From the IMG/VR virus record IMGVR_UViG_3300037458_000975: a stretch of DNA of 49,355 nt; one strand, written 5' to 3'. This document shows positions 12,756-47,559 of this stretch, one piece after another. The notes under the pieces are model-generated. The model worked only from the letters and a program-made list of their open reading frames with translations, searched no databases and was not told where the DNA came from. Both the position numbers and the translations under genes were made by a program. This DNA is from a virus. The first letter of the stretch is position 1; the number at the start of each line of letters is the position of its first letter.

Positions 12756-13090
12756 CTCCCGTCCGGCAGGGTTGGATCTACCTCCCTTGGTGGCTCGACC
12801 GGGATTCGCTGTCCGACATCCTCGAGCAGGCCGTTGTCGTGCGGCACGTCGATATCCCTCACGAGCGCCGCACCGCCTTCCTGATCGAGCACCCGGACCT
12901 CATCCTGACCGAGAGCACCTCCTACACCAAGTACAACGTCAGCCTCTCGTCCGGCGGGAAAGTCCGCTTCACCCTGTCCGGTGCGCGGGATGGCCGCTTC
13001 ACCCTTGGAGTCCGTAATGAGAAAAGTGAACAGCTCCGGCCCGACACCAGCCCGAATCCTCCTGGTCGGGGAAGCTCCGGGGGAGAATGA
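12752..13090 (+). CDS. hypothetical protein (112 aa)
   Basis: ATGA overlap at 12752. The 3' 74 nt overlap the polymerase start, so the true C-terminus or the reality of the tail is uncertain. Confidence 0.4.
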   Translation: MTPVRQGWIYLPWWLDRDSLSDILEQAVVVRHVDIPHERRTAFLIEHPDLILTESTSYTKYNVSLSSGGKVRFTLSGARDGRFTLGVRNEKSEQLRPDTSPNPPGRGSSGGE

Positions 13091-15431
13091 GGGGTCCCGC
13101 GGTGAGCCCTTCGTCGGGACCTCGGACTGGTTCCTCGACGGGATGCTGCACGACGCGGGCATCCTGCGGACGGAGTGCAGGCTGACAAACGTCGTCCGCT
13201 ATCGTCCGCCGGGCAACGACCTCACCCAATGGCTCACCCCCAAGAAGAAAGATGCACTCGAGCGCGGCCTGCCGCATTTCGCGGACGGCCTCTGGTACAA
13301 CGACATCGTCGCGGAGGGACTTAATGAACTCGCGCAGGAAATCAAGGAATGCCAGCCGAACGTCATCATCGGCTTTGGCAACACCCCGCTTTGGGCGCTC
13401 ACCGGCAAGACCGGAATCGGCAACTGGCGCGGCTCGGAGCTTGCAACGCGGCAAGGCCCGAAGGCAGTCGTCACCTACCATCCGGCAGGAGTTCTTCGTC
13501 AGTACGAGTGGCGACCCCAGGTCGTGGCCGACCTTCGGCGTGGACTACGCGAAGCAGAGCGACGAGACCTGGTGGTGCCACCTTACGACTTCCTCCTCCG
13601 TCCCACCCTCGCCACCGTTGTCGAGTGGCTCTCCCGCCTCCGCGACCGACTGGCTGTGGGACAGCTTCGACTGTCCGTGGACATCGAAACTCGCCTGGGC
13701 CATATTGCTTGTATTGGTATTGCTGACAGTCGCCACCACGCCCTCTGCATCCCCCTGCTGTGCCTAGAGGACGCCGCGGGCTACTGGTCCGCCGACGACG
13801 AGGTCGCGATCTATCCGCTGCTTCGCGAGGTCCTGACCCACCCGAACGCTCGCATCGTCGGGCAGAACTTCCTCTACGACGCCCAGTACTTCGCCCGCCA
13901 CCTCTACTACATCCCCCGCTGCACCGACGACACGATGCTGATGCAGCATCTCGCCTTTCCCGGATCGCAAAAGTCCCTTGCCTACCTCGCCTCCCTTTAC
14001 TGCGAGCACTACACCTTCTGGAAAGAGGACGGCAAGCTGTGGGACCCGCGCTACATGTCCGAAGACCAGCTCTGGCGCTATAATTGCCTAACAGGGGACA
14101 CACTTATTCTCGACGCTCTCTGCAGCTGGAAAAGGCTCGATACAGTGTCCATCGGTGACGCGCTTCTCGCCTTTGACGAAGAGCCGACAGGAGCGCGCTA
14201 CGCCAGAAAGCTTTCAATAGCATTTGTCACAAACAAGAAAGCAAGTGTTAAACCGACAGTTAAAATCACACTTCGCAATGGTACAACACTGCAAGGGACA
14301 AAAGACCATAAAGTTATGGTTCAAAAAGAGAAGAAATCCGGGCGCTTTATCGGGGTTGAGTGGAAAGAACTTGGGGAGCTTGTGGTTGGCGAGCGCGTGC
14401 TTTCAATTGGACGCCCCTGGGAAAAAGATGATACCTTTTCTGGGGGTTGGTTAGCTGGCATATACGATGGAGAAGGAACCATTGGCGCCAGTTATCAAGA
14501 CGGAAATCACCATTTTCCCAGGATAGGATTTTCACAAAAAGCCGGACGTGTACTGCAACAAGCAGTAGAAACTCTCGAAGCCGCTGGTTTCTCCCTTCGA
14601 GTAGTAGACAAGGGAACAGCGGTTTACGTAGACATCAACGGCGGGCTGGCTGAAAATCTACGTCTCCTTGGAACCTTTCCAACGGTGCGCCTGCAAAACA
14701 CCTTCCTAAAAGGAGCCATGGAACATGGTTGGAGTGGGTTTACACAGATTACTCGACAGGAAGTCCGCAGCATCGAACCTGCTGGAGAAGAAACAGTTTA
14801 CGACATTACTACAACCAGTGGAACTTTTATCGCCAATGGAGTAGTAGTACATAACTGCGAGGACGCTGTCCGCACCTACGAATGCGCGGAGGAGCTCGAT
14901 AAAATCCTTGACACCTTGCAATTCCGGGAGCATTATGTTCACCAAATGCGCCTGTGGCAGGCCACCCTCCGCACCATGCTTCGGGGAGTGCGGATCGACC
15001 AGGGCAGAAAGAACCGACTCGCGATGGAACTGATCGAGGCCGCGGACATCCGCCAGAAGCAGATCAACCTCATCGTGGGGCATGAGCTGAATTGCCGCTC
15101 CCCCCTGCAGATGCGGAAGCTCTTCTACGACGACCTCAAGCTGCCGGAGGTCCATCATCGGAAGTCCGGCAACGTCACGCTGGACGACAAGGCACTCGAG
15201 TCCCTCGCCGGAAAGCAGCCCCTGATCCGGCCGCTCGTTGAGCGCATCCAGCAGCTCCGCTCGATCGGGGTCTTCCTTTCGACCTTCGTCCAGTCCCGCC
15301 TCGACACGGACAACCGAATGCGCTGCTCGTTCAACCCGACCGGGACGGAGACCTTTCGGTTCTCCAGCTCGGAGAACGCGTTCGGGAGCGGCACGAACCT
15401 ACAAAACCTGCCGAAGGGAGATGAGGAATGA
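13017..15431 (+). CDS. DNA polymerase, family A, part 1: UDG-like domain + 3'-5' exonuclease + N-terminal polymerase region (contains intein)
   Basis: The ATG at 13017 has GGAG 6 nt upstream. UDG family-4 motifs: LVGEAPGENE, PFVG, NVVRYRPPGN, YHPAG. Exo I is VDIET and Exo II is GQNFLYDAQY. Exo III (Y-N-[intein]-C-E-D) is interrupted. The ORF ends just after the TGR.SS/NLQNLP motif. Confidence 0.9.
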   Translation: MRKVNSSGPTPARILLVGEAPGENEGSRGEPFVGTSDWFLDGMLHDAGILRTECRLTNVVRYRPPGNDLTQWLTPKKKDALERGLPHFADGLWYNDIVAEGLNELAQEIKECQPNVIIGFGNTPLWALTGKTGIGNWRGSELATRQGPKAVVTYHPAGVLRQYEWRPQVVADLRRGLREAERRDLVVPPYDFLLRPTLATVVEWLSRLRDRLAVGQLRLSVDIETRLGHIACIGIADSRHHALCIPLLCLEDAAGYWSADDEVAIYPLLREVLTHPNARIVGQNFLYDAQYFARHLYYIPRCTDDTMLMQHLAFPGSQKSLAYLASLYCEHYTFWKEDGKLWDPRYMSEDQLWRYNCLTGDTLILDALCSWKRLDTVSIGDALLAFDEEPTGARYARKLSIAFVTNKKASVKPTVKITLRNGTTLQGTKDHKVMVQKEKKSGRFIGVEWKELGELVVGERVLSIGRPWEKDDTFSGGWLAGIYDGEGTIGASYQDGNHHFPRIGFSQKAGRVLQQAVETLEAAGFSLRVVDKGTAVYVDINGGLAENLRLLGTFPTVRLQNTFLKGAMEHGWSGFTQITRQEVRSIEPAGEETVYDITTTSGTFIANGVVVHNCEDAVRTYECAEELDKILDTLQFREHYVHQMRLWQATLRTMLRGVRIDQGRKNRLAMELIEAADIRQKQINLIVGHELNCRSPLQMRKLFYDDLKLPEVHHRKSGNVTLDDKALESLAGKQPLIRPLVERIQQLRSIGVFLSTFVQSRLDTDNRMRCSFNPTGTETFRFSSSENAFGSGTNLQNLPKGDEE
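14085..14855 (+). mobile_element. intein (257 aa) with a single LAGLIDADG motif
   Basis: It begins at Cys (CLTGDTLI, block A) and has block B TKDH. The LAGLIDADG motif is WLAGIYDGEGTIG. It ends VYDITTTSGTFIANGVVVHN, followed by a +1 Cys. Sampled GC is about 37-45%, against about 62% in the flanks. Confidence 0.85.
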
Positions 15432-16186
15432 ACTCCCCCCTCGACTTCCGCCTGCCGAACATCCGCAAGATGTTCATCCCCGATCCCGGCTACACCATCC
15501 TCGACATTGACCAGCGCGGGGCGGACGCTCAGGTCGTCGCCTGGGAAGCCGACGACGCACAACTCAAGGAGGCCTTCCGTGCCGGACTCAAAATCCACGC
15601 AGTTAACGCTAAAGATCTCTTTGGGAACAACGCCGGCCCTGACGGTAAGCGTGAACCCTACTACACCCGGGCCAAGTCTGGAGTTCACCTTACCAATTAC
15701 GGGGGCAAAGCTCGGACTTTGGCAGCTACTCTTGGACTCACTGTCCACGAGGCCGAGTGGTTTCAGCGACGATGGTTCGAGCTGCACCCCGGAGTTCGGG
15801 ACTGGCACAATCGAGTTCGCGCTCAGCTCCAAGCCGAGCGTTCTGTGCGCAACGCTTTCGGTTACCGTCGCTTCTATTTCGAGCGAATCGACGACCGAAC
15901 GCTCAATCAGGCGCTTGCTTGGATTCCCCAGTCAACCGTCGCAATCGTAACCAATCGCGCCTGGACCAACATTGACGAGCAGCTCGACCCGCTGGTCCAG
16001 GTGCTGCTGCAAGTCCACGACTCCCTCGTCCTGCAGACCCCAACCTCCCGCCTCGCCGAAGCCAAGCGCAAGCTCCTCCCCCTTATCCAGATCCCCGTAC
16101 CATACCCTGATCCGTTAACCATCCCCTGGGGTATCAAGTCCTCCGGGGTCTCGTGGGGTGACTGTCAAGACGACAGTTGGGAATAA
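15428..16186 (+). CDS. DNA polymerase, family A, part 2 (palm/fingers, motifs A-C)
   Basis: ATGA overlap in the -1 frame relative to part 1. Motif A region: IRKMFIPDPGYTILDIDQRGADAQVVA. Motif B: RAKSGVHLTNYGG. Motif C: QVHDSLVLQ. Confidence 0.9.
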   Translation: MNSPLDFRLPNIRKMFIPDPGYTILDIDQRGADAQVVAWEADDAQLKEAFRAGLKIHAVNAKDLFGNNAGPDGKREPYYTRAKSGVHLTNYGGKARTLAATLGLTVHEAEWFQRRWFELHPGVRDWHNRVRAQLQAERSVRNAFGYRRFYFERIDDRTLNQALAWIPQSTVAIVTNRAWTNIDEQLDPLVQVLLQVHDSLVLQTPTSRLAEAKRKLLPLIQIPVPYPDPLTIPWGIKSSGVSWGDCQDDSWE

Positions 16187-16234: not shown

Positions 16235-17425
16235 TTGCGTCGTTGTCAGGACTGGCTCAAATCCTTCGTCGAGTTCGGGAGCTATGGGGAAGCTCCGCTG
16301 AAGATGATCTTTTGGACCGGGGTCAGTGCCATCGCGGGCGCCTTGCGCCGCCGGGTCTGGATCGATCAGCGGTTCTTCACTTGGGTACCGAACTTCTACA
16401 TCATCCTCGTCGCCCCTCCAGGAGTTGTCTCGAAGTCCACCACCGCGAACATCGGGATGAACCTGCTCCGGCAGATCCCCGACATCCGCTTCGGGCCGGA
16501 TGTGGTGACCTGGCAGTCGCTGGTGACCTCGTTCGCGGAGTCGGCGGAGTCCTTCCAACTGCCCTCCGGCGACTGGGAGACCATGTCCTCCCTCACCATC
16601 TCAAGCGACGAGCTCGGCACCTTCCTCAACCCGAACGACCGCGAGATGATCGACGTGCTCGTGTCGCTGTGGGATGGCAAGAAAGGCACATTCCGCAAGC
16701 AAACCAAGATGTCCGGGAATGACACCATTCAAAACCCCTGGATCAACATCATCGGCTGCACCACGCCGAGCTGGATCGCCGAGAACGTCCCGGAGTATAT
16801 GATCGGCGGGGGCTTCGTGTCCCGCTGCGTTTTCATCTACACCGACAAGAAGCGCCAATTCGTCCCCTACGTCGATGAAGCCGTCCCAGCCGAGTTTGGC
16901 GATCTCCGCTCGAGCTTGGTCCACGACCTCGAGGAAATGTCCACCCTGTGCGGGGAGTTCCAGATATCGGAGCCCGCCCGCGAGTGGGGCCGGACGTGGT
17001 ACACTGACCACTGGCAGAAAGGCCGCGAGGGGCTCGACACGGAGCAGTTCGCCAACTACCTCTCTCGCAAGCAGACCCACCTCCACAAGCTCGCGATGAT
17101 CCTCTCCGCAAGCCAGGGCAACACCCTCCTGATCGAGCCCCACCACCTCCAGCACGCCGAGGCCATGCTGTCCTCGATCGAACCGGACATGCACAAGGTG
17201 TTTGCCCGGATCGGCAAGTCCGAGGTGACGAAGGCGACCGCGGAGATCCTCGACCGGCTCGACGGCTACCCCATCCCGAAGGAGACGCTGTTCCGCCGGA
17301 TGATGCACTCCGTCACGATCCGCGAGTTCGACGAGGCCCTCGCCGGTGTATGTGCCAGCGGGATGGCCCGGATCGTCTACCGGGAGAACGAAGTCCTCGT
17401 CGTAAGGAACGTCGTCAATGGCTAA
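16235..17425 (+). CDS. P-loop NTPase, putative replicative helicase/primase-associated protein (DUF3987-like)
   Basis: TTG start with GGAG 7 nt upstream. Walker A-like LVAPPGVVSKSTT and Walker B-like MIDVLVSLWDG. Size and position fit the helicase of the replication module. The family call is from memory. Confidence 0.5.
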   Translation: MRRCQDWLKSFVEFGSYGEAPLKMIFWTGVSAIAGALRRRVWIDQRFFTWVPNFYIILVAPPGVVSKSTTANIGMNLLRQIPDIRFGPDVVTWQSLVTSFAESAESFQLPSGDWETMSSLTISSDELGTFLNPNDREMIDVLVSLWDGKKGTFRKQTKMSGNDTIQNPWINIIGCTTPSWIAENVPEYMIGGGFVSRCVFIYTDKKRQFVPYVDEAVPAEFGDLRSSLVHDLEEMSTLCGEFQISEPAREWGRTWYTDHWQKGREGLDTEQFANYLSRKQTHLHKLAMILSASQGNTLLIEPHHLQHAEAMLSSIEPDMHKVFARIGKSEVTKATAEILDRLDGYPIPKETLFRRMMHSVTIREFDEALAGVCASGMARIVYRENEVLVVRNVVNG

Positions 17426-17759
17426 GAAATGGCAACGCCTCGTATCCCGCATCCGGCTGGAGGGCTATTGCTGCCCCCACTCGTTCTTCCGGGAACACGA
17501 CCGCTGGGATTCCCGCTACATCGCGGAGGATCTCGAAATGACCAAACGCGCGGTCCAGTTCTGGCGCGCCAAGTACCGGGCCGGTGCCCTGCTGTGCGAG
17601 CGCAACACGGCCTGTACCCTCACTCCTTCGGAGCGCGGAAGGACTCCTCTACCTCCCGGTAGGTATTGCGATATTTCCGCTGTCCCGGTTGTGCCGCGGT
17701 TTCCTGTTGCATCGTCCGACGACGAGCCTCAAACGAATCCCGAAGAACCTTCGGAGTGA
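17418..17759 (+). CDS. small putative HTH protein (113 aa)
   Basis: It overlaps the previous stop by 8 nt. IAEDLEMTKRAVQFWRAKY is HTH-like. The last ~46 codons overlap the convergent giant gene and look low in complexity. Confidence 0.35.
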   Translation: MAKKWQRLVSRIRLEGYCCPHSFFREHDRWDSRYIAEDLEMTKRAVQFWRAKYRAGALLCERNTACTLTPSERGRTPLPPGRYCDISAVPVVPRFPVASSDDEPQTNPEEPSE

Positions 17760-20700
17760 TCTTGAGCCTCGCATCCGGCACCCGGCTGTTATAGCGCTCG
17801 ATCATCTTCTTCACATCCGCCTGCCCTTCTCGGTCGTCGTAGATCCTCGCCTTGAAGTAGGCCTCCGTGATCTGGCGCTGTTGCGCCATCCAGTACTCCC
17901 GCGTGACGAACTGCTCGAACCGGATCTCCCGCTCAACCGAGGGACCAACCGGCTGGAACCCAAGTCCCCGCATCAGGATCTCCGTCGGGGTTGGCTTGTA
18001 GATCACGCCCTCTCCGGGTCCGCGCACTCCTCCCTCCGCGGCCCAGCGATAGGCCGTCGCCGCACTGCCAGCGGCTCCCGGCATCCGCGAGGCGAGCTCG
18101 CGCGGGGCCATCCCCTCATTCGGCACCCCGTACATCCCAGTCCACACCGCCTTCACAAACCCTCCGAGCGGCCCCATCCAGTCCAGCACAAACGCCCCGA
18201 GATCCTGCAGGGGCTTGCCGGAGCTGAACAGCTTGTCCGTCCCTGGGATGATCCGGCCGAGGCCAATCGACCGGCTGATATCATAGCCTGGCAGGACCTT
18301 CCCATGCCCCAGTCCGTGCATCACCAGCGCCGGGTCAACCTCGAGGGTCTCCTTGACAAACTCCCTCGCGTCCTGCCGAGCGGTCTTCCCGAACATCTTC
18401 CGCCACAGGATGTCCAGCAGATCGAACAGGTTCTCCGCACCCGGCAGTCCCTCGAGCCCGGCCAGCAACAACATCAGCAGATTGATCCGCAGGGTGTAGC
18501 TCTGGTACAGCTTCGGCAGCGGGATCTGCTTCCCACCCAGCTCCGCATTCTCCTCGTTCGCGAACTTGATCTGTGCTCGCAGTCCCCGCTCATACCCTCC
18601 CCACGCGTGCCAGGCCATATGCTGGGTCCACTGCGCGAAGATGAACAGGATCGACTTGTTCCCGCGGAGCAGCTTCGGCCGGTTGACCGTCGTGTAGTCG
18701 TTCTGCAGTAGGCTGGTCTGCTGGGCCGCGTTGAGGAAGGACTCGTTGACTGATTCCCCCATCTCCCGGTGCATCCGATACTGCAACAAGAACGTCGTCA
18801 TCCTCGCCATGTTTTCGGTCCAGGCGAACGGCATCATCCCGTAGTGCATGAAGGCTTCCTTCACCCCCTGCATTGCGGTCCCGACTGCCCCCGGCATCCT
18901 CTCATACATCCGGGAGGTGCCACCTGCGTTCGCCTGGCTCGCGAGGTAGTACGCATACGACTGATCCACCACCCCCTCGCGGATCGCCCGCATCAGGGCC
19001 TCACTCTCCTCGACCGCCCGGAGCTGCGCTTCGCTCGGCTGCGTGCCGGCGGCTTCCGCCCGCTGCACCTCAAGCCTCGCCTGCATGATCTTCTCCGGGT
19101 TGAGCCAGGCCGAACGGAGTGCCGCCATTGCCTTCACCGTCTCCGCCGTCCCTCGCGCCACTCCCAGCCGGGTCGTCGCATCAACCCAAGTCGTCATCAT
19201 TCCGTTCAGATTCAGCAGCGCCGTCTTGACATTGAAGGCGAGGAACCCCGTGCTGACGATCGCCCGGAGCACGTGTAGCTCGTGCGACGGACTCATCACA
19301 TAGTCCTTCGTCTCCCGCGCGAACTCCAGCAGCCGTTCGATCTCGGTCTTCTGCGCGACCTGCTCCGGGGTGATCCCGGCGAGCTTCTCAAACGCATTGA
19401 TCTGCGAGCGGATATCGTTCAGATCCTGCTGCAACATCCAGTTATACCGAAACTTCGCGATCGCGTTCGCCTGGTGCCACGTGAAGCTTGCGATCACCCG
19501 CTGAAGGTTCTTCGACCCACCCTGGACCGAATACGATTCCTTGAACCGCGCGAGCAGCTTGTCCTTCTTCCCCGGCAACATCAAGTTCCGCAGCTTCTCC
19601 GCGTCCTCTTCCGACAGCACCATCTCCCGGACTGCGTCCTCGAAGAACTCGAGCGGCAGGTTCATCAGCACCGCGACTCGGTCGGGGACTTCCTGGAACT
19701 CAACGTTCCCGACTCCGTGCTTCCGTACCAGCTCCGGCACCCGCTTCTCGTACTCCTCCCTCGACTCGAACGCCTCCTTCCGCACGAGGGTTCGGACAAG
19801 TTCACCCTCCTGATCCGGCACCATCGCGTAGACCAGCGCAACATAGTTCCCGAACCACGCCTGCGGCAGAAACGGCACGCTCCGCAACTCCGCCATCTGC
19901 CGGTTGAGCGCGTTGTATTCGAGGACCTGGGCCTCATACTTCGAGAACCTCGCGGGGATGCGGCCGGCCAGCGCGTGCGCGGTGTGGAAGTAGTAGTCAT
20001 CGAAGAGCTGCACCGCCTCCACGAACAGCTTCGCCGTCGTCCTGCCCGCATCTGTCTCGTCCGTGATCCCGAGCCTCTCCAGAAACAGCTTCGTCTGCTC
20101 CGTCGGGATCGCGGTGCGCTGCTCGAGCCCCGCGAACCGGCTTGCCCCCTGCCGGGGCTGCCAGTCCACCATCCACTCTCCCCCGACGAAGTGCTCCGCC
20201 AGCGCCCGCTCCAGCCTCGCCGCGTGCTCCTTCGGCAGTTTCCCCATCGCCTGGAGGAAGTTCTGGGCCTGCTTGTGCAGCGGCGCCGCATGGCGCGTGT
20301 AGGACATCAGATCCGTCGTGAACGAGCTGAGCCCCGGCACCTCCGGGTGCATCCATGCCTTCTGCTGTAGCTGCAGCGTGTGATCCGCGATCTTGTCGAA
20401 CCACCGCAGCGCCTTTCGAGCGATCCCCCCATCCTTCCAGGCCCGCAGCACCGAGATCTTCGCGGAGCCATCGGCGGTTGCCTGCTCGAAATCCGGATCG
20501 GTGTTGACGTCGAGGTGCATCTTCGGGGAGTCGCTGTACGTCATGGACTTCGACGACTTGACCTGCTCCGGCCGAAAGGCAACCCACGAGATGTCGCCCT
20601 CGACCAGGTTCAGGTAGACAAGCCCGTCGTGCCCCCGCTGTTCGAGAAACTGGCGGATTGGGACGAAAATCTCATAGTTGTTAACCGGACTAGGCCCCCC

Positions 20701-23700
20701 CAGCACATAGTCGATTACGATGGTTACTTGATCATACAGGGTACTACTTTCTTGCGGCGTAATCACCCCGCGCGTCTCGAGGAACTTGATCATCCCCGCG
20801 GGGCTCTGCCACATATAGGCCTCTTCTACCCCTACCCACAGCGGATTCCGCAGGTTGAGGAACGCGGGGATGATGTTGGCTTTTAGCGAGTCGGTCGCTT
20901 CGCCGAGGTATACCAGCTTCAAGGTTATTGGGTCCACCGTAAAGGCCTGTCCTGCGGTACTCACCGTCGCCTTCTTCAGCACCTTCCCCTGCGTTTCGAA
21001 CCAGTCCTGTGCCGCCGCCAGGGTTTGAAACTGTGTCTGCGCCAGCCGATTATGCGCCGCCCGCAGCGACCCAAAGTGGAACCCGATATCTTCACTCTTC
21101 TTAAACATTTCATAGTCCGCTCGCGTCCCGTGAAACACCTGCAACGGCACGCTTCCCGAACTCAGCACAGAGATCGACCCAACCTGGGCCTCCCGCGGAA
21201 AGAGCATACCAGAGCGGACCTTGCTACTGCCCTGCGGATCGGCTTCCCAATCCCCGAACCACCCCTTGAAGAATGGGCTCTTCGTGCCCTGCTCAGCCCA
21301 CAGCCGGGTCGCATACGCCCGAACCTCCGGACGAAGCGCGTCTTCCTCGGTCAGAGTCGGGCTTGCCTGATACCCCAGAATTTTTCGCTCGGTCGCTCCC
21401 GCGTGCTCGACGTACCCCACTCCGAGCTCCGCCAGCCGATCCCGCTCCTCCGTCGACAGGTCAAAGTGCACATCCTTCCCAATCTTCTCCCCTATGTAGG
21501 CCGCAACGTCGTCCCAGTACCCGCTGTTAATCCAATCGACGAGCATCTTGAAGTCCCGATGCTTCGGCCCGAAAGTCGGATCAACCGCCTTGATCTGCGC
21601 GATCGCCCACTTCTTGTTCCGCTCCCCCTGCAGCTCCTCCCGTGTCGCCGATTCCTGCAGCGCCGCCGCGAGCTGCTCCTCCTTCGTCAGCACCGGCTCC
21701 GCCACCACCGGCTTGCCCTTCTTCGGCTTCGCCTGCGCGGGCTTCAGTTCGAGCTGCGACACGAACCCCGGGCTCTTCGCTGCGAGGTATCCCGTCAGCC
21801 ACTCCTCGAACTTCACCCCTGGCTTCAGCTTGACCACAAGGGGGTTGCCCTGCGTATCCTTGACCGGCGCCCCCATCGGCAGATAGCTCTTCGTCTGCTT
21901 GTCCCAGACCGGCATCGTGACCTGCACACCGTCCGTCTTGAGCATGACGTACATCCGGCGGAAGGCCTCGACCGCCGATCTCCAGAACCCCTGCGATCTC
22001 GGCGCTGTCTCCGGCACGTTCCGCAGGAACGCATACCGCGCGAGCTGCTCCGACATATACTCATTGATGCTGGCGATGTGCTGCTGCACCCACTCGCGGT
22101 TCTGCTCCGGGGTCGAGGCCGAGCCCTGCGCCATCTTCGCCATCATCATCAGGTACTGCAGCGCGGGCATCGCCTCTGTCGCACGGCGGGCTCCCTCCGC
22201 CTTTGCCGACTTCGTATCATACCCTTCCCGAATGAGCTGCTCCGTGATCTCCCGCGAGGCGAGGGTTTGCTGCATCGCCTTGGCCGGAGCGGCCCACTCG
22301 TTCCGGAACTCCGCGAGGGTCATCTGCCCACCCATCAGTCGGGCATAGCGCTCCTGGTACTCCAGCACAACCGCCCCGGCTTCTGGCGACATCTTGCTGA
22401 GGATTTCCGGCCCGAGCTGGTGCGCCATCAAGTGCGCTTGATTCCGCTCCATCGGGTCGGTCAGGTTTTGAAACAGCGACTCCACGAGGAACGCATGGCC
22501 GAACTCGTGCATCGCGGTGTTCTGCCACTGCAGCAGCCGGCTGAACGTCGCGTTCGAGTTGAAGTTGATCCGGAACGAGCCGTCCGGGTTCCGCGAGGTC
22601 TGCCGTTCGAACCCCGGCAGTTCCTTCGGGACAATGTAGAACGCCTGCGGGCCGAGGTTGATGTGGACCCCATTTACTCCCCGTCCGAGGCTCTGCGTCC
22701 CAATGAACACAGCCCGATCCGGCATCACCACCTTGCGGAACGCCTCGATCACGTCCACCAGCGCGGTCATCGCCAGCGGGCTTCGCCCGAACGTGTCTCC
22801 GAGAGTGCCGACAACGTGAGTGCCCGGGGTAAACTCCACACTTCCCACCGGGCGATTTACCATCTCCGGCACCGAGCTGATCGCGATCGACTGCTTCAGC
22901 GGATCAACCCCGTCGTTCGGGTTCTCCCCGACCTTCTTCGGCTGGGTCGGATGGTAGGCGTCTTGGACTCGCTGCTGCGCATCCCGCAGCTGGTCAACGA
23001 TCGGAGCCATCGACGGGGTTGCGACCTCTGGCGTTTCCTCGATCTGCTTCGCCTGCTGATGCAGCTCCGTCGGGGTGGCCGGAGTTTCGTCCACCGGGAT
23101 CGTCGCCAGGATCTCGTCCAGGCTCCGCTCCGCCCCCAGTTGCTGATCCGCGATCTCCCGTGCTCGTTGCTCCGAGACGGTCTCGGCGACTGCCTGGCCC
23201 TGCAGCACCTGCTCAACCGGCGTCTGCGGCACCGTCGCCGGCTGCCCCATCCGACGCAGTTCCCTCGCCGCATCCCGCTCTTCGAGGGCGTTCTTAACGC
23301 TGGGCGGGATCGAGTCATAGACCCGCTGGGCTGCCCGCTGCTTCGCGGTGAGGTGGCCGAGCGGGGCGTAGATCGTCCCACCAAGCGCCCCCGCAAGGCC
23401 CGCCTGCAGCGAGCTTACCAGCACATCTTCCCAAGACAGCGACGGATCATAGCTGTACTTTGCGTCCGTTGTCTGAATTGCCTGGGTAATGAATTCCTGC
23501 AGTGCCTCCGCGCCCATTACTTCCGCTGCTCGTTGTAGCAGTTTCGGTCCGGTTCGCATCATGACCTTCATCGGGAGCATCTCGAGTGCCCCCTCCGTCA
23601 CCCCAGCAAAGCCTGCCGCACGCCCCGCCGCTCGGGCATCCCCGGTCAGCCGTTCTGCCTCCCCGTAGGTCGCTCCGGCCTGCATCGCTCCGCCACCACC

Positions 23701-24174
23701 GAGACCCACCGCTAGTCCCAACGCCGGGCTCTTCGTCAGCGCAGCCACCCCTAGACCAGCAATCGTGGACGGAGCACTCTCTGCAATGCTTCCGACTACA
23801 CCACCCCAGAAGCCTTCCTGCCCCGCCGGACGTGCCGCGGCTGTCTCCGCTGCTGCCTGTTCCGCGAGCGGTTTCAGCCCCGCCGCTTCGTTCTGCTGCT
23901 TGAGGTATTCCTGCCCCGCGGGCGACTCGGGATACTTCGCCGCTTGCTCCGCCATCCCGCCTTCCTGCATCGACTGCAGTCCGGGCTCAACGAGCATCCG
24001 TTGGAAGTTGATTGCTGCCTCTTTCGCGGCCGGAACAACCCTCCCCGGCACCGAGGCTAGCGATTCCCCGAACGAGGCCTCGCGGAATTGCGTGAGGGCT
24101 TCGGAGATCTGATCATCCGTCGCATCGTCGGGGAAGGAATACAGCCGCCCCTCGGCGGATACCGTTTTCGGCAC
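17620..24174 (-). CDS. giant polyvalent virion/ejection protein (2184 aa) with HExxH metallopeptidase motif and ART-like domain
   Basis: GTG start with AAAGGAG 7 nt upstream. HEFGH at aa 556-560 (nt 22495-22509). A segment at about aa 965-1210 reads FFKGWFGDW...VFHGT...GFHFGS...VEGDISWVAFRPEQVKS. The N-terminus is Gly/Ala-rich and hydrophobic, and the C-terminal third has hydrophobic helices. It is the last gene of the virion arm. Confidence 0.85.
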   Translation of the reverse strand: MPKTVSAEGRLYSFPDDATDDQISEALTQFREASFGESLASVPGRVVPAAKEAAINFQRMLVEPGLQSMQEGGMAEQAAKYPESPAGQEYLKQQNEAAGLKPLAEQAAAETAAARPAGQEGFWGGVVGSIAESAPSTIAGLGVAALTKSPALGLAVGLGGGGAMQAGATYGEAERLTGDARAAGRAAGFAGVTEGALEMLPMKVMMRTGPKLLQRAAEVMGAEALQEFITQAIQTTDAKYSYDPSLSWEDVLVSSLQAGLAGALGGTIYAPLGHLTAKQRAAQRVYDSIPPSVKNALEERDAARELRRMGQPATVPQTPVEQVLQGQAVAETVSEQRAREIADQQLGAERSLDEILATIPVDETPATPTELHQQAKQIEETPEVATPSMAPIVDQLRDAQQRVQDAYHPTQPKKVGENPNDGVDPLKQSIAISSVPEMVNRPVGSVEFTPGTHVVGTLGDTFGRSPLAMTALVDVIEAFRKVVMPDRAVFIGTQSLGRGVNGVHINLGPQAFYIVPKELPGFERQTSRNPDGSFRINFNSNATFSRLLQWQNTAMHEFGHAFLVESLFQNLTDPMERNQAHLMAHQLGPEILSKMSPEAGAVVLEYQERYARLMGGQMTLAEFRNEWAAPAKAMQQTLASREITEQLIREGYDTKSAKAEGARRATEAMPALQYLMMMAKMAQGSASTPEQNREWVQQHIASINEYMSEQLARYAFLRNVPETAPRSQGFWRSAVEAFRRMYVMLKTDGVQVTMPVWDKQTKSYLPMGAPVKDTQGNPLVVKLKPGVKFEEWLTGYLAAKSPGFVSQLELKPAQAKPKKGKPVVAEPVLTKEEQLAAALQESATREELQGERNKKWAIAQIKAVDPTFGPKHRDFKMLVDWINSGYWDDVAAYIGEKIGKDVHFDLSTEERDRLAELGVGYVEHAGATERKILGYQASPTLTEEDALRPEVRAYATRLWAEQGTKSPFFKGWFGDWEADPQGSSKVRSGMLFPREAQVGSISVLSSGSVPLQVFHGTRADYEMFKKSEDIGFHFGSLRAAHNRLAQTQFQTLAAAQDWFETQGKVLKKATVSTAGQAFTVDPITLKLVYLGEATDSLKANIIPAFLNLRNPLWVGVEEAYMWQSPAGMIKFLETRGVITPQESSTLYDQVTIVIDYVLGGPSPVNNYEIFVPIRQFLEQRGHDGLVYLNLVEGDISWVAFRPEQVKSSKSMTYSDSPKMHLDVNTDPDFEQATADGSAKISVLRAWKDGGIARKALRWFDKIADHTLQLQQKAWMHPEVPGLSSFTTDLMSYTRHAAPLHKQAQNFLQAMGKLPKEHAARLERALAEHFVGGEWMVDWQPRQGASRFAGLEQRTAIPTEQTKLFLERLGITDETDAGRTTAKLFVEAVQLFDDYYFHTAHALAGRIPARFSKYEAQVLEYNALNRQMAELRSVPFLPQAWFGNYVALVYAMVPDQEGELVRTLVRKEAFESREEYEKRVPELVRKHGVGNVEFQEVPDRVAVLMNLPLEFFEDAVREMVLSEEDAEKLRNLMLPGKKDKLLARFKESYSVQGGSKNLQRVIASFTWHQANAIAKFRYNWMLQQDLNDIRSQINAFEKLAGITPEQVAQKTEIERLLEFARETKDYVMSPSHELHVLRAIVSTGFLAFNVKTALLNLNGMMTTWVDATTRLGVARGTAETVKAMAALRSAWLNPEKIMQARLEVQRAEAAGTQPSEAQLRAVEESEALMRAIREGVVDQSYAYYLASQANAGGTSRMYERMPGAVGTAMQGVKEAFMHYGMMPFAWTENMARMTTFLLQYRMHREMGESVNESFLNAAQQTSLLQNDYTTVNRPKLLRGNKSILFIFAQWTQHMAWHAWGGYERGLRAQIKFANEENAELGGKQIPLPKLYQSYTLRINLLMLLLAGLEGLPGAENLFDLLDILWRKMFGKTARQDAREFVKETLEVDPALVMHGLGHGKVLPGYDISRSIGLGRIIPGTDKLFSSGKPLQDLGAFVLDWMGPLGGFVKAVWTGMYGVPNEGMAPRELASRMPGAAGSAATAYRWAAEGGVRGPGEGVIYKPTPTEILMRGLGFQPVGPSVEREIRFEQFVTREYWMAQQRQITEAYFKARIYDDREGQADVKKMIERYNSRVPDARLKITPKVLRDSFEARRRTMQQETAAQPGQRKYRNTYREVEESFRAPKE

Positions 24175-24201
24175 AGTAGACTCCTTTCGGGCGTCTTGAA
24201 A

Positions 24202-25332
24202 CTACTTCGTTGGCTTCGGAACGTACTTGCGCTGCTTCGGGTCCCAGACCATTTCGACGGCGCCGGGGCTCACATCCCCGCCTTCCCCGAACCTCCGCTC
24301 GATCCGCTGGAACTCTTGCCAGGTTGCGTCGGAGTCTTCCTTCATCGTGTCGCGCAGGAAGGCCAGATACCGATCCCTCGGATTGAGCCCCTTCTTCGAG
24401 TCCATGAACTCCTGCGTCGCACGCGCTTGCCGCTGGTTGTATTGCTCCTCCGACTCCTGCGCCCCCTTCGGATTCGCAACTTTCCACTGCCTCGCGTACT
24501 CCTGCGCGCGTTGCACTTCGGCCGCGGTGCCGCCGGAAGTCGGCTTCGCAAACCGTCCGGTGCTCGTGTAGAACTCCTGCTGCGGGGTCATCGACTCTGG
24601 ATTTACCCGTAGATCGTCCGCCGTCGGAAGCCCGGCGATCGCCAGCCGTTCCTGCCTACGAGCCAGCATCGTCTCGTTCGCTGCCCCTGCTGTCGCATAC
24701 GACGACGCTGCAGACGCCTTCAAGGAGCGCTGCCGTTCCCGCTCCGTATTGATCGCCTCAAGTGCCTGCGTCATCCCGTACTTCTCCACGATGTCCGCCT
24801 CGAGTTGCCGCTTCCGCGCCTCCGCATTAGCGTTCCCAGTCATCGCCTCCAGTCGGGCAATCTCCGCTGCAGCCTTCTGCAACTCCTGCGGATGCAGCTC
24901 CTGCGCCCGCGACTCCTGCCCCCTGGTCTGATCCGTCCGTACCCGCTCGAGATCGGTCGTGGCCTGAATCCGCTCGAGCTCCGCTCCGCGCTTCGCCTGC
25001 TCCTCTTCCGCGAGTTGGCCCAGGTTGTACGCGCCGACTCCAACCCCCATCCCTTGCAGTCCCCGTCCGAGCGGTGTCTCGTTCGGCGCGAGCGGCACCC
25101 CAAGCGCCTGCCCAAAGAACATCAGCGCCCGCCCAACATTCGGATCTTGCATCTTTTGCTGGATCGCCTGCCACCCGTTCACCCTCGCCGCGAGCTCTTC
25201 CTGCGAGGCAGGAGGCTTCGGTTGGAACTCCGGCGGCAGCCCGTTTACCGCAGTGTTCGCCGCGTTGAGGTTCGTCGGCCCGGTGGCCTGGGTCTGCGGG
25301 TTGAGCCCGAGAATATCCGCGAGTCCTGCCAT
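24202..25332 (-). CDS. internal virion/ejection-type protein, coiled-coil (376 aa)
   Basis: Clean ORF with a central Glu/Arg/Gln-rich coiled-coil region. It sits between other internal-type proteins and the giant gene. Confidence 0.55.
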   Translation of the reverse strand: MAGLADILGLNPQTQATGPTNLNAANTAVNGLPPEFQPKPPASQEELAARVNGWQAIQQKMQDPNVGRALMFFGQALGVPLAPNETPLGRGLQGMGVGVGAYNLGQLAEEEQAKRGAELERIQATTDLERVRTDQTRGQESRAQELHPQELQKAAAEIARLEAMTGNANAEARKRQLEADIVEKYGMTQALEAINTERERQRSLKASAASSYATAGAANETMLARRQERLAIAGLPTADDLRVNPESMTPQQEFYTSTGRFAKPTSGGTAAEVQRAQEYARQWKVANPKGAQESEEQYNQRQARATQEFMDSKKGLNPRDRYLAFLRDTMKEDSDATWQEFQRIERRFGEGGDVSPGAVEMVWDPKQRKYVPKPTK

Positions 25333-25336
25333 GATC

Positions 25337-25786
25337 TCACCTCAGTCCAAGGATCTGCGCCAGTGTCGGAACCGCCCGCGGGTTCTGGATCACCGGCAGC
25401 GCGAGTTGCTGCATCGTCACCTGCGGCGAGCGGGTACCCGCCGCTCCCGCCCCCGGGAAGGGCATCAACGCCGGAGTCTTCGGCATCATCCCCGCGAGCG
25501 TCCGGAGGTTCTCATCCGTCAGCGGAGCGGTTGGCTTCGGCTGTGCCTGGGATTGCTGCCCCGACAGCGCACCCCCTCCCGGCGCACCGAAGATGATGTC
25601 GGCCAGCCCACCGCTCTGCGGAGGTGCATCGAGTTTCCAGTTCGCCGGATTCGACCCACCCGGCTCCTGCACCGTCGGCACCCCGAAGCCGCTCGTGAAC
25701 TGATTCTTCGCCAGCATATCCAGCAGATTCCCAAAAGGCGCCGGATCGTACTGCTGCGCGAGGGAAAGGAACATATCAGGAGTCAT
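25337..25786 (-). CDS. hypothetical virion protein, Gly/Pro/Gln-rich (149 aa)
   Basis: Clean ORF inside the coupled late operon. Confidence 0.5.
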   Translation of the reverse strand: MTPDMFLSLAQQYDPAPFGNLLDMLAKNQFTSGFGVPTVQEPGGSNPANWKLDAPPQSGGLADIIFGAPGGGALSGQQSQAQPKPTAPLTDENLRTLAGMMPKTPALMPFPGAGAAGTRSPQVTMQQLALPVIQNPRAVPTLAQILGLR

Positions 25787-27339
25787 TGCAGCACCCCGTA
25801 GTTAACGTGCTTGATTCCGTTGATCTCGACCACCGCCTCCGGCAGAACCGTCTCGACCTCCTGCGCCAGCACACCGACTTCCGGTCGGCCAAGCAGTCGA
25901 TACGAATAGATCCCGATCCCACTCGGCAGTTGCCCAAGCCGCTTGATGTCGGACTTCAGCCGCACATCCGACATGAACATCCCCGCGATCGAGGCAAGCA
26001 ACCCGATCCCCTGCATCGCGGTCTGTCCACTGGACGGCCCAGGATACTGATTTGTCGAGACCGTCATCGGGTTCGAGCCACCATACACGATGTTGGCGTA
26101 GTTCTGCAGCGGGGTCCACTCTTTGTTGAGGTCCCACACACGCTGCTGCGCCGCCGCGTTCTCCTGCGACTGCGCGAGCTGCTCGTTCTGCGATCCGATC
26201 GCCCCCAGCATAGCCGACGGATACGTCCCCGCCGCAAGCACATTCGGCAGCTGCCCCAGGGTGCTCGACATCGTGTTCAGCCCCTGATTGTACGCGTTGT
26301 TGTAGAGCCCCGCCATCTGCGCTTGCGTCCCGAGGTTCCGCAGCGCCTGTCCCTGCTGCATCGAGCCGAACTGCTGTGCGACCGAGTTCGCGGTCTGTCC
26401 AAGCCCCATCCCTAGCCCCGTATACGCCTGGCCTGCCTGCTGGCCCAGCGACCGAGTAGCATCGCCCAGGTTGTTCGCGGCTTGACCTCCGGCGAGTCCG
26501 AGTTGCTGCGCGAGGGTTTGGTTCCCGATCCCCAGATTGTTCGCGCCCGACATCCCCGCCTGCCGGACAGCGCTTGCCAGATCTTGACCAACCCTACCGG
26601 CCGCCACCCCCTCGGCGATGCCTTGACGAGTGCTGCCAAGTTGTCCGGAGTTGATGAATCCCGAGCGGATTTGCGGCATGATGACATCGCTGAAGTTCCG
26701 GCCGGCAAGCCGTGCCGCCTCCTCGACGTTGAGGTTGAGGTCCCCGAACTGCCGCTGCATCGACGAGCCAAGTCCCTGCGCTCCCGTCGCGAGCTGCGCA
26801 CCGAGGTTCCCGAACAGCTGATTCTGGCCGGCCCCGATGTTCCCGAGTCCAGTCCCGATCATGTTCCCGACTTGCTGTCCTTGGGTGGCCAGCTGGTAGG
26901 CGTTATTCGCCAGGTTCTGCTGAGCCAGTAGGTTTTCCATCTGATTCTGGCCCAGGAGCGTGGACCCAAGCGATTGCGCATAACCCTGGAGCGACGGATT
27001 GTTGTTGACATCGAGCACCCCCGAGAGACCGAAGTTCGCGGCGGACTGGCCAGTGTTGACCAGCGGCTGAGCCCCGTTCACCGCATACGAGGCAAGCATT
27101 TGCTGGGACTGCTGGGTTTCGGGGCTGAACGGAACGACCGCCGGCCCAGGGTAGCCCGCGCTCGCGAACTGATCCTTCGTCGCCCCGTAGATGCGAGCGG
27201 CCTCGTCCTGCACCTGTGTCCGACGAGCAGCCTCCTCCGGGGAGTACTGTTGCGTCGTGGTCGAGGTGGTGGACTGTCCCCCGCCTTTCCGATAAACCGG
27301 CCCGAACAGCCGGTACTTCCAGTGCAGCATCTCACGCAT
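25783..27339 (-). CDS. Gln/Asn/Gly-rich internal protein with C-terminal S74-type intramolecular chaperone autoproteolysis domain
   Basis: The last 62 aa are SDVRLKSDIKRLGQLPSGIGIYSYRLLGRPEVGVLAQEVETVLPEAVVEINGIKHVNYGVLQ (nt 25786-25971). The body is low-complexity (GQQAGQAYTGLGMGLGQ...), with a hydrophobic segment just before the Ser. Confidence 0.75.
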   Translation of the reverse strand: MREMLHWKYRLFGPVYRKGGGQSTTSTTTQQYSPEEAARRTQVQDEAARIYGATKDQFASAGYPGPAVVPFSPETQQSQQMLASYAVNGAQPLVNTGQSAANFGLSGVLDVNNNPSLQGYAQSLGSTLLGQNQMENLLAQQNLANNAYQLATQGQQVGNMIGTGLGNIGAGQNQLFGNLGAQLATGAQGLGSSMQRQFGDLNLNVEEAARLAGRNFSDVIMPQIRSGFINSGQLGSTRQGIAEGVAAGRVGQDLASAVRQAGMSGANNLGIGNQTLAQQLGLAGGQAANNLGDATRSLGQQAGQAYTGLGMGLGQTANSVAQQFGSMQQGQALRNLGTQAQMAGLYNNAYNQGLNTMSSTLGQLPNVLAAGTYPSAMLGAIGSQNEQLAQSQENAAAQQRVWDLNKEWTPLQNYANIVYGGSNPMTVSTNQYPGPSSGQTAMQGIGLLASIAGMFMSDVRLKSDIKRLGQLPSGIGIYSYRLLGRPEVGVLAQEVETVLPEAVVEINGIKHVNYGVLQ

Positions 27340-46051: not shown

Positions 46052-47559
46052 CCTCTGAATTCAATCTGGCGCTTCGTGTCGGAGTCGGGGAGGGTCGTGA
46101 ACTCCCCCTCGAGCGTGACGGAGCCGCGGAGTTCGGGGTTGACGCTCATGATGCCGAGCGCAATCGCATCGACGATGTCGTCTTTTTGGTCCTTGATCGT
46201 CGGGTCGTAGTCGTCCATCTGCTTGATCGCCTTCGATTGCGACGGGTGCATCACCAGGTGGCCAAAGGCCACGAGCCCGGGGATCGCCTGCATGATCCGA
46301 TCGGACTTCTTCCGGCGGTCCTGGATCTGATCCACCGCCACGAAGATCCGGCGCTTCTGCATCTCCTGCTCGATGTACCAGGCGAGGACCCGCTGGAACG
46401 AGATCGACTCCACGACCACCCGGATGGGGCTCCAGCGGAGGATCAACTCGAACAGCCGATTGACCGCCGCATCAGGCAGCACCCCGCGCTCCGCAAACAC
46501 GTCGAGCACATAAACGTCCGCCCCGAGGAAACCTAGCGCCACCATCGCAAAGTCGTCCGCGGTCTTGGCCTCGGACGATGCCGGGTCGATCGAGACGATC
46601 ACCCCCATCTGCTCCGGCAGTACGTCCCAATACCGGAGCTTGGTAACGTCGATGGCCTTGTACTCGGAGGCGACCAGCTGGCACTCCATCTCCCGCATCC
46701 AGAGGGAGTACTGCCCCCTGCGGGTAGCCGCGGTCTTTTCCGCGACCAGCGTATCTGTGCTCCAGCGATCCGGCCATGCGCTGTGACCCTTGTCGTCGAA
46801 GCACGAGACGGAGAGGCCGTTCCACTGCGGATCTTCCATACAGGCCTCGATCGCATCCTCCTTGTGGAAGGGGGTCTGGCAGAACGCGATCTTTGCGAGG
46901 GGCTGCTCGCTGGCGGGGGCGAGGGAATTGAAGAGGGCACCGAACAGGAGCTCCTCGATCTTTTCCCGCTGCTCGATTGTGGCGGTGTTTTCGTCAGTCA
47001 GCACGTCGTCCACGATGATCAGATCCGGCCGGAAGTCGTCCGGGTTGAAGCCGCGGATCTGACCGGTAATGCCCATCGCCAGGACGGTGATCGGATACTG
47101 ATCCACCCCGTGGTGGATTTCGAGGTACTCGTCGGTCCACTTGTCCCCCGGCCGAAGGCCGAAGGTGTTCGCCCAGAGCTTGTTGTAGAGGATCTGCTTC
47201 TTGAGCCAGCGGAGGCTCATCGCCGCGTGGAGCTGGGCCGACCCGACGTACATGATCGTGTGTGAGATGCCGTAGGCGATCCGCTGCGACGTGAAGACCC
47301 GGAGCATCGTGGTCTTGGCGGAGCCGCGGAACAGCTTGAACGCGTTGTAGCGCGCGGGACTGTAGAGGCGTTCCCCGACCTCGGCGTGGAAGGGGGCGAA
47401 GGGTTGCCGGAAGGTGCGGGGGAAGAAGACCTTCCCGTAGGTCAAGAGGGAGGTCGCCCCGAGCTGGACCGCTTCGGTCGGGGACAGCTTGAGGTCAGTC
47501 GGCGCGTTCATGCCCGTATTTGGCCTTGCGTTCCCACGCATCGTGCTCGCGGAAGTCAT
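46042..47559 (-). CDS. terL: terminase large subunit
   Basis: Walker A-like FRGSAKTT and Walker B LIIVDDVL. The C-terminal nuclease-type acidic motifs are VSIDPAS and DDFAMVALG. The start is uncertain (47559, 47541 or 47511). Confidence 0.85.
   Translation of the reverse strand: MTSASTMRGNARPNTGMNAPTDLKLSPTEAVQLGATSLLTYGKVFFPRTFRQPFAPFHAEVGERLYSPARYNAFKLFRGSAKTTMLRVFTSQRIAYGISHTIMYVGSAQLHAAMSLRWLKKQILYNKLWANTFGLRPGDKWTDEYLEIHHGVDQYPITVLAMGITGQIRGFNPDDFRPDLIIVDDVLTDENTATIEQREKIEELLFGALFNSLAPASEQPLAKIAFCQTPFHKEDAIEACMEDPQWNGLSVSCFDDKGHSAWPDRWSTDTLVAEKTAATRRGQYSLWMREMECQLVASEYKAIDVTKLRYWDVLPEQMGVIVSIDPASSEAKTADDFAMVALGFLGADVYVLDVFAERGVLPDAAVNRLFELILRWSPIRVVVESISFQRVLAWYIEQEMQKRRIFVAVDQIQDRRKKSDRIMQAIPGLVAFGHLVMHPSQSKAIKQMDDYDPTIKDQKDDIVDAIALGIMSVNPELRGSVTLEGEFTTLPDSDTKRQIEFRGCP

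Follow-up and report, generated by a model that had tools for sequence, protein, structure and literature searches.

A 2184-residue protein with metallopeptidase-like and ADP-ribosyltransferase modules as the probable large ejection protein of a phage

A giant gene on the minus strand (17620..24174) was analysed in the viral DNA stretch IMGVR_UViG_3300037458_000975, whose full 49,355 nucleotides are referred to here as the window. Its product, a protein of 2184 residues, is probably (rough probability 0.7) the large internal-virion, or ejection, protein of the phage, built as a polyvalent effector. Five parts follow each other in the polypeptide: a Gly/Ala-rich N-terminal domain, a domain with an HEFGH motif and a downstream Glu helix, an ADP-ribosyltransferase (ART) domain of the ART-PolyVal type, a conserved linker and a ~730-residue C-terminal domain of the PLxRFG 'tail-700' type. 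The initial annotation had described a polyvalent virion or ejection protein with a zincin-type motif, a polyvalent-type ART and an ejection-type C-terminus, and the analysis supports this core, with presence in virions as its deduced part. Packaging, ejection, zinc binding and both enzyme activities are predicted, in part by analogy with characterised phages. The features of the gene are as follows (coordinates, strand, feature):

17620..24174, minus strand: whole gene of the predicted polyvalent ejection-type protein (2184 aa; GTG start, stop codon included)
24181..24187, minus strand: Shine-Dalgarno sequence AAAGGAG, 6 nt upstream of the GTG
23320..23877, minus strand: N-terminal Gly/Ala-rich domain, residues ~100-285 (conserved in relatives)
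21775..22857, minus strand: zincin-like metallopeptidase domain, residues ~440-800 (invariant residues and AlphaFold2 model)
22495-22509, minus strand: HEFGH motif, residues 556-560
22045-22062, minus strand: residues E705-Q710 of the Glu helix NEYMSEQ (residues 704-710, with E705 and E709)
20545..21285, minus strand: ART-PolyVal ADP-ribosyltransferase domain, residues 964-1210 (Pfam profile and alignment)
19873..20454, minus strand: conserved region between ART and tail, residues 1241-1434 (detected in 18 relatives)
17695..19872, minus strand: PLxRFG 'tail-700' domain, residues 1435-2160 (NCBIfam, PHROG, AlphaFold2, Foldseek and hhalign)

The C-terminal domain matched the NCBIfam model NF032893 (PLxRFG tail-700) with 184.8 bits against a curated cutoff of 100, over profile positions 3-671 of 681. 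Its PLxRFG motif reads PFLPQAWFG (1434-1442), with Trp in place of Arg; close relatives carry PFFPQGRFG, and the canonical form is YFPLxRFG. The PHROG matches of the region were to the extreme C-termini of phage proteins of 1.7-4.6 thousand residues, and tblastn found the domain in 55 phage records, including those of Microcystis phages, Serratia phage Parlo, Pseudomonas phage Skulduggery, Klebsiella Lastavirus and F116-like Pseudomonas phages (E about 5e-5). An AlphaFold2 model of residues 1421-2184, built from 40 sequences (predicted local distance difference test score, pLDDT, 81.6; predicted template modelling score, pTM, 0.71), begins with a small alpha/beta unit and continues as a large all-alpha body. 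Compared by Foldseek with the predicted viral structures of BFVD, this model gave 41 matches at E up to 1e-3. The top matches were C-terminal pieces of giant polyvalent phage proteins (E 1e-26 to 1e-9, template modelling score, TM, 0.4-0.64), and among the others were 'Internal virion protein D' of the Roseobacter phages CRP-5 (E 1.1e-6) and CRP-4 (E 1.6e-6), ~1,400-1,500-aa proteins of Vibrio phage ICP2 (E 2e-6) and Celeribacter phage P12053L (E 4e-7), and a protein of Salinivibrio phage CW02 (E 9.5e-4). The corresponding search of the PDB yielded a best E of 0.84, with helical transporters at a TM of about 0.08, and T7 gp16 was not among the matches. With hhalign, the tail profile aligned collinearly to CW02 gp40 over 306 columns (E 4.7e-4, probability 33%).

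Hardies et al. united the phiRIO-1/CW02/ICP2/SIO1 group, the F116/H66 group and T7 gp16 in an "extended IVP-D family" (internal virion protein D), with a hidden Markov model comparison giving E 8e-19 between the joined sets, and counted H66 gp60 and N4 gp50 as IVP-D homologues bearing an intracellular enzyme (PMC4819975). Because of this grouping and the BFVD, hhalign and tblastn matches, the C-terminus of the giant protein appears to fall in the phiRIO-1/CW02/F116-H66 branch of the extended family, through a chain of weak links in sequence and predicted fold. The further step from this branch to T7 gp16 is a published result (PMC4819975) and was not reproduced in the present comparison. The C-terminal third had been annotated as both hydrophobic and ejection-type. 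The second attribute stands by homology (tail-700, IVP-D-type fold). The first does not: no 19-residue Kyte-Doolittle window in this third reached 1.4 or a transmembrane-like score, and transmembrane helices were therefore rejected there. The LRINLL...AGLEGL stretch LRINLLMLLLAGLEGL (1895-1910) is a conserved motif of the alpha-helical domain.

The composition of the protein points in the same direction as its C-terminus. It contains no Cys, although about 24 would be expected if it resembled the other 24 genes in this respect (1.11%; P about 3e-11), and Cys is likewise missing from the three genes that precede it, which are probable partner ejection proteins; cysteines return in genes further upstream:

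24202..27339, minus strand: three upstream cysteine-free genes of 376, 149 and 518 aa (composition; the 518-aa gene matches PHROG 'DNA ejection protein')

Cysteines were also absent from 21 of the 22 close relatives of the giant protein, from the equivalent gene blocks of Microcystis phage Mel-JY34 and of the 45-kb metagenomic contig L003, from T7 gp15 and gp16, CW02 gp39 and gp40, and Bcep22 gp70, gp74 and gp75 (4602 aa), and from gp50, gp51 and gp52, the three ejection proteins of N4 (PMC13434306). Since this absence is shared with the T7 and N4 ejection proteins, we infer that the whole polyprotein, enzymes included, passes through the tail and the periplasm. As a simple trait of composition, total absence of cysteine may mark ejected proteins; no paper on cysteine absence in ejection or internal virion proteins turned up in a literature search.

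The position of the gene was examined by PHROG scans of its surroundings. The minus-strand arm comprises terminase (46042-47559), portal, major capsid protein and several tail or virion proteins, and towards its end a "DNA ejection protein"-like gene (25783-27339) lies upstream of the giant gene, which is the last of the arm, as the initial annotation had placed it. The plus-strand replication arm, encoding an exonuclease, a Sak4-like protein, a ParB-methyltransferase, a DNA polymerase and a primase, converges on it, and no terminator-like site was found in the gap between the two arms. In Mel-JY34 and L003, the homologue is also the last gene of the virion arm and faces DUF3987 primase, PolA and ParB-methyltransferase genes. 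The giant open reading frame (ORF) is a single unbroken frame of 2184 codons, whose GTG start and strong Shine-Dalgarno sequence, directly past the TAG stop of the preceding upstream gene, were correctly annotated. The frame can be regarded as validated by homology as well as by length, and an identical protein is present on one JGI metagenome contig. Neither a megablast search of the gene against 50,697 phage records nor a PDB sequence search with the whole protein returned anything. The annotated positions of the sequence motifs proved exact: HEFGH at 556-560, SPFFKGWFGDW at 966-976, VFHGT at 1013-1017, GFHFGS at 1031-1036, LVEGD at 1190-1194 and the alpha-helical motif given above at 1895-1910.

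The ART annotation, of the type found in polyvalent proteins, was supported by profile searches. ART-PolyVal (PF18760) was the sole Pfam match with E <0.1 across the whole protein and scored 35.4 bits (E 2e-8; gathering threshold 31.2) when residues 955-1240 were scanned alone. Aligned segments from the giant protein, nine relatives and the ART domain of P0033 matched ART-PolyVal only (11 of 11, best E 1e-19), and the profile of this subfamily recovered the ART domains of classical Acinetobacter-type PLxRFG proteins. A PDB sequence search with the ART profile found no solved structure for the family, and a word-indexed search with the ART segment alone returned nothing at E up to 1e-3, the giant protein itself included. 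According to Iyer et al., the ART-PolyVal site consists of a His in strand 1, a Tyr in strand 2 and an Asp in strand 5 (PMC5512222). The strand-1 His corresponds to H1015 in PLQVFHGT, and the strand-2 position is occupied by H1033 in GFHFGS, a His that is invariant across the subfamily and also in P0033 (motif GFHFG[ST]). The Asp would be D1183 in GHDGLVY (consensus G.DG[ILVM].Y), which we take to lie in strand 5 by analogy with the PARP motif NEYIVY. H1015, H1033, D1183 and, in addition, E1192 are invariant in the 11 segments, which are 30-42% identical. From this alignment we infer H1015, H1033 and D1183 to be the site residues. The site would then read "H-H-D", between the H-Y-[EDQ] and H-H-h configurations described in the ART superfamily (bioRxiv 10.1101/2020.07.21.169896). 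The subfamily further carries a specific insert of ~100 residues past strand 2 (~1040-1165).

The lower GC content of the ART-coding DNA, which had been put forward as a sign of domain acquisition, is real (0.573-0.586 vs 0.632 for the whole gene), as is the corresponding drop at third codon positions (0.74 vs 0.82-0.91 over most other parts of the gene). As an argument for acquisition it is weak: the dip lies only ~1.2 standard deviations under the window mean, deeper troughs occur elsewhere (e.g. 0.475 near 14200), and the third-position GC content of the N-terminal 300 codons is likewise low (0.70). GC content was therefore rejected as proof of horizontal acquisition.

The HEFGH motif lies in a domain whose invariant residues and predicted order of elements suggest a zincin. 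A Pro/Glu/Gln-rich linker (280-430) and a Lys-rich one (800-960) lie to either side of it. In an alignment of the giant protein with 22 relatives (22-27% identical to it), the motif HE[FL]GH was invariant in 23 of 23 sequences, as were, in all, H556, E557, G559, H560, W627, E705, Y706 and Q710, with E709 nearly so. An HExxH is expected 0.048 times by chance in a protein of such composition and was seen in 4.6% of shuffles; when the 137 relatives were searched locally, segment by segment, 26 showed the HEFGH region. The second motif, EY.AEQ.AR.AY, lies 145 residues beyond the HExxH, and its E705 and E709 are both candidate third zinc ligands. The AlphaFold2 model of the domain (pLDDT 77.9, pTM 0.79) shows, in model numbering, a helix (42-59), three strands (64-68, 78-84 and 87-92), the HEFGH helix (116-143), a helical insert and then the EYMSEQ helix (279-292), on which the Glu motif lies. 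This order of elements is that of the zincin core of polyvalent metallopeptidases, which consists of an N-terminal helix, a three-stranded sheet and two helices (Iyer et al., PMC5512222). Beside this core, a helical hairpin resembling a pentatricopeptide repeat (PPR) was observed at the end of the domain (residues ~737-800, window ~21775-21965, profile positions 285-336; consensus L..LR.FF...K..G.IAPG..F.EW..GL), which in the giant protein is split by a 32-residue insert, a predicted beta-hairpin. A match of the zincin profile to designer PPR proteins (E 6e-12) was rejected as an artefact, in which the one PPR-like hairpin was summed over eight identical repeats, each of which alone gave E >=9.

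Relatives were collected by an exhaustive HMMER search with the N-terminal 960 residues against 1.84 billion representatives, which gave 137 representative clusters. No other part is as widely conserved as the N-terminal domain, which was detected in 126 of 136 giant relatives, mostly of 1.6-4.7 thousand residues, and heads >120 clusters of giant proteins with varied cargo. Its consensus reads ...SAP.T..G...GI.TRNP..AMA.AGGGG...QAG.TYGEA..KGA...LEG.GE..PL..ALK.G...E.GQE..TQ..QD... The annotated Gly/Ala richness and hydrophobicity of this part were both recovered, with 46% Gly plus Ala in residues 101-200 and the only 19-residue Kyte-Doolittle peak >1.4 of the protein at residues 138-156, a near-transmembrane stretch inside the domain, which is possibly a membrane-active or delivery module. 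No counterpart was found in Pfam, NCBIfam, PHROGs or the PDB, where a sequence search with the N-terminal profile returned nothing. Among cultured phages the domain was found in Microcystis phage Mel-JY34 only, and tblastn of the N-terminal 960 residues against phages gave no match. A word-indexed search with the profile produced only 2 matches, probably because Gly/Ala-rich words swamp the candidate list. The domain has not been described before.

Behind this N-terminal domain, the architecture of the relatives varies. When proteins of at least 1500 residues in the set were classified with local profiles, the following arrangements were counted:

N-terminal domain, zincin-like domain, ART and tail: 24 proteins
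N-terminal domain, zincin-like domain and tail, without ART: 15 proteins
N-terminal domain and tail: 16 proteins
ART and tail: 29 proteins

Pfam scans of three relatives identified other cargo behind the same N-terminal domain: inorganic pyrophosphatase (InPase) and tail-700 in P0044; InPase, a methyltransferase and an SNF2-like helicase in P0050; and InPase with an LPD38 domain at the end in P0053. The family therefore appears to have constant "bookends" with an exchangeable middle. It is the presence or absence of the ART in otherwise collinear relatives, and not the modest GC dip, that indicates its gain or loss as a module.

A mechanism can be drawn by analogy with T7 gp16 and N4 gp50. The latter has been described as beads on a string, with a probably membrane-spanning N-terminal domain, a polymerase as cargo, a subdomain with HExxH and an alpha-helical one of ~110 kDa that has no structural relatives; its ejection follows that of gp52 and gp51, and it regains its fold in the cytoplasm, still anchored at the membrane (PMC13434306). 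By this analogy, a few copies of the giant protein would be packaged inside the capsid and, on infection, be threaded, largely unfolded, through the tail behind the three smaller cysteine-free proteins. The N-terminal domain, the tail-700 domain or both would help to form or anchor a conduit spanning the envelope, and the enzymatic beads would refold on its cytoplasmic side. The ART would then use NAD+ to ADP-ribosylate some host target ahead of phage gene expression, as T4 Alt does at time zero, and the zincin-like domain might cut the polyprotein to free its modules or cleave a host protein.

Several results weigh against the reading as a polyvalent ejection protein with two enzymes. At the C-terminus, hhalign gave no similarity of the tail to T7 gp16 (E 0.73), and no direct similarity to the C-terminus of N4 gp50 was detected, as the profiles found nothing significant in N4 gp50. 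JC1 gp69 (PMC9144972) and phi24B gp47 (bioRxiv 10.64898/2026.04.10.717836) are giant polyvalent proteins that occupy the same genomic position and were found in virions. They serve as analogies only, because no link to this tail domain was made: attempts to connect it with the virion-proven Bcep22/JC1 gp75/gp69 by NCBIfam, hidden Markov models and hhalign yielded nothing, and phi24B gp47 was not among its tblastn matches. In the whole-protein scan, ART-PolyVal reached 28.1 bits, under the 31.2 cutoff, and H1033 stands where canonical members have the Tyr/Phe of G[FV][YF][FL][TS], with His for the defining Tyr. Seven relatives (P0036, P0041, P0045, P0055, P0077, P0087 and P0114) carry a shortened ART-like segment that keeps the flanking motifs FK.WFGDW, LNIRNP, G.DG.VY and F.P.QIK and lacks the strand-1 His, the GFHFG motif and the ~100-residue insert, which indicates that the ART module can decay. 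The giant protein has a 17-residue insert (985-1001) in common with most members of the degenerate group, but still possesses the catalytic residues.

For the zincin-like domain, Pfam yielded no model matching the HEFGH region at any E up to 10, a PDB search with the 23-sequence profile returned zincins only at E 0.3-2.7, and Foldseek of the model against the PDB found nothing significant (best E 0.38). Its weak matches include EcxA, ACE2, IRAP and snake-venom metalloproteinases, the best zincin being EcxA (4l6t_A) at a non-significant E of 0.44 and a probability of 0.35. Pfam scans of the 23 individual members gave as recurring families only M43 (4 members, best E 0.017) and DUF4344 (3 members). 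The annotated combination of HEFGH and a downstream Glu thus holds at the level of invariant residues and model order, and not at that of profile and fold searches. Judged by the alignment and the model, the HEFGH domain, although without a significant match, probably contains a zinc-peptidase-like site.

These results could also be accommodated by an alternative in which the giant protein is a structural ejection protein, packaged and ejected, whose HEFGH and ART regions are dead relics acting as spacers or folding units. It draws on the His in place of the defining Tyr, the sub-threshold ART score of the full-length scan, the seven relatives with ART-like segments devoid of catalytic His and GFHFG motif, and the lack of any significantly matching zincin family. 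The invariance of H1015, H1033, D1183 and E1192 in all 11 ART segments at 30-42% identity, and of HEFGH and E705 at 22-27% identity, speaks against it, as such conservation of catalytic positions is not expected of relics, and we consider this alternative unlikely.

It is rather improbable that the zincin-like domain instead breaches the cell wall during penetration, a part played in T7 gp16 by the lytic transglycosylase, with peptidoglycan peptides or an envelope protein as its substrate. The phi24B study put forward such a role for gp47's metallopeptidase domain (bioRxiv 10.64898/2026.04.10.717836). The scanned virion genes revealed no further muralytic domain, and the zincin-like domain is located near the N-terminus, adjoining the possibly membrane-active domain. 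Yet it has no similarity to any muralytic family, and peptidoglycan peptidases (M15, M23) are not known to use HExxH sites. Iyer et al. moreover associate polyvalent metallopeptidases with autoprocessing, as in P1 DdrB, or with a role after transfer (PMC5512222).

A more specific version of the preferred reading, that of an ejected polyvalent effector, concerns the ART itself. The H-H-D ART may be a distinct variant with a helical insert of ~100 residues that perhaps ADP-ribosylates a non-protein target, either nucleic acid or a nucleotide used by host defence as a signal, or else hydrolyses NAD+. The enzyme would then be a first-strike counter-defence factor delivered ahead of any phage gene expression, and the N-terminal and tail-700 domains a general delivery chassis for interchangeable ART, InPase, methyltransferase and helicase modules. 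All of these parts together make an improbable proposition. Least probable is a late-expressed cytoplasmic anti-restriction or host-takeover 'DarB-like' protein outside the ejection machinery, for which packaging would be unneeded: PHROG phrog_10089 'DarB-like antirestriction' matches the C-terminus (E 3e-9) and many phage homologues of the tail bear this label, but it derives from cargo domains of other family members, neither Pfam nor NCBIfam shows the methyltransferase and helicase domains of P1 DarB, and last-gene position, cysteine-free composition and IVP-D-type fold all favour packaging and ejection. As an annotation of the present protein, the "DarB-like antirestriction" label was rejected, since the PHROG covers the shared C-terminal tail only and the 2184 residues contain no methyltransferase or helicase.

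The giant protein belongs to described classes, namely polyvalent proteins, PLxRFG proteins and IVP-D-type ejection proteins with enzymatic cargo, and is not a new kind of system. For phage-type polyvalent proteins, packaging and joint delivery with the DNA are predicted, and their commonest hub domain is a zincin-like metallopeptidase (PMC5512222). Like them, it is giant and multidomain, is encoded among portal, terminase and virion genes, here as in Mel-JY34 and L003, and combines a metallopeptidase-like domain with ART-PolyVal, and thus at least two unrelated effector-type domains in one polypeptide. It differs in that its metallopeptidase domain matches no Pfam model, those of polyvalent proteins included, that its N-terminal domain is not among the described domains and that the strand-2 Tyr of the ART is replaced by His. 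With the PLxRFG proteins (NF032893; Klebsiella Lastavirus, Serratia Parlo, Acinetobacter prophages) it has in common the ~700-residue domain at the very C-terminus of a giant protein. Identity to these proteins is only 20-24%, however, they retain the Arg where the motif here has Trp, and their cargo consists of LPD1, LPD39, InPase, ParB or methyltransferase domains. The members of the extended T7 IVP-D family (H66 gp60, CW02 gp40, phiRIO-1 gp37 and the C-terminal domain of N4 gp50) are similarly large, alpha-helical and cysteine-free and are encoded at the end of the virion module behind smaller ejection proteins, and two of them, H66 gp60 and N4 gp50, also carry an intracellular enzyme; in contrast to this family, the giant protein lacks a lytic transglycosylase domain, and its membership depends on the chain of weak links described above.

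The resemblance to N4 gp50, with gp51 and gp52 (PMC13434306), extends to gene order. In both cases the last gene of the virion arm converges on replication genes (polymerase, exonuclease, primase and a Sak4-like gene), the giant gene is preceded by a ~150-aa protein (149 aa in this phage and 150 aa in the case of N4 gp52) and by cysteine-free proteins of middle size, and the product is a string of domains with a possibly membrane-active N-terminus, an enzyme as cargo, a subdomain with HExxH and, at the C-terminus, a large alpha-helical domain. The cargo here is an ART rather than an RNA polymerase, no T7-like single-subunit RNA polymerase family being found in the giant protein with Pfam, PHROG or NCBIfam, and the HExxH precedes the cargo instead of trailing it. 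The sole sequence trace of a relationship is the Glu-helix motif, at a non-significant hhalign E of 0.046. T4 Alt, a virion-carried ART that is injected with the DNA and modifies host proteins at time zero, provides a functional model, but it belongs to the R-S-E clade of ARTs, whereas the ART described here is of the H-Y-[EDQ] lineage, and it is a separate small myovirus protein and not a module of an ejection protein. What is particular to the giant protein is a metallopeptidase-like clade outside the curated models, the putative H-H-D variant of the ART and the undescribed N-terminal domain.

Two further observations were made in the window. A small plus-strand ORF (17418-17759) starts at the stop of the primase gene and overlaps by 140 nt the 3' end of the giant gene, which lies on the other strand. 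The equivalent genes of Mel-JY34 and L003, of 70-82 aa, conserve the first ~70 residues of this ORF, including an invariant G.CC...C...C, and the overlapping extension is specific to this window. The DNA polymerase region (12981-16186, plus strand) consists of two overlapping ORFs of 816 and 252 aa that match different parts of one PHROG DNA-polymerase profile, whereas a single gene of about 800 aa is present in the relatives. GC content falls to its window minimum (0.475, ~14200) inside the first of these ORFs, and an element or domain may have been inserted in this region.

In an infected cell, ejected polyvalent proteins act before any other phage molecule, and almost none has been tested biochemically. 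The giant protein is compact, with only two candidate enzymes, and comes from a family with a clear presence or absence of the ART, which makes it a tractable model for the threading of cargo through a podovirus tail, for the targets of ART-PolyVal enzymes and for the role of the HExxH domain that is ubiquitous in giant virion proteins. The N-terminal "bookend" domain and the absence of cysteine could, in addition, aid the annotation of ejected proteins in the genomes of uncultured phages.

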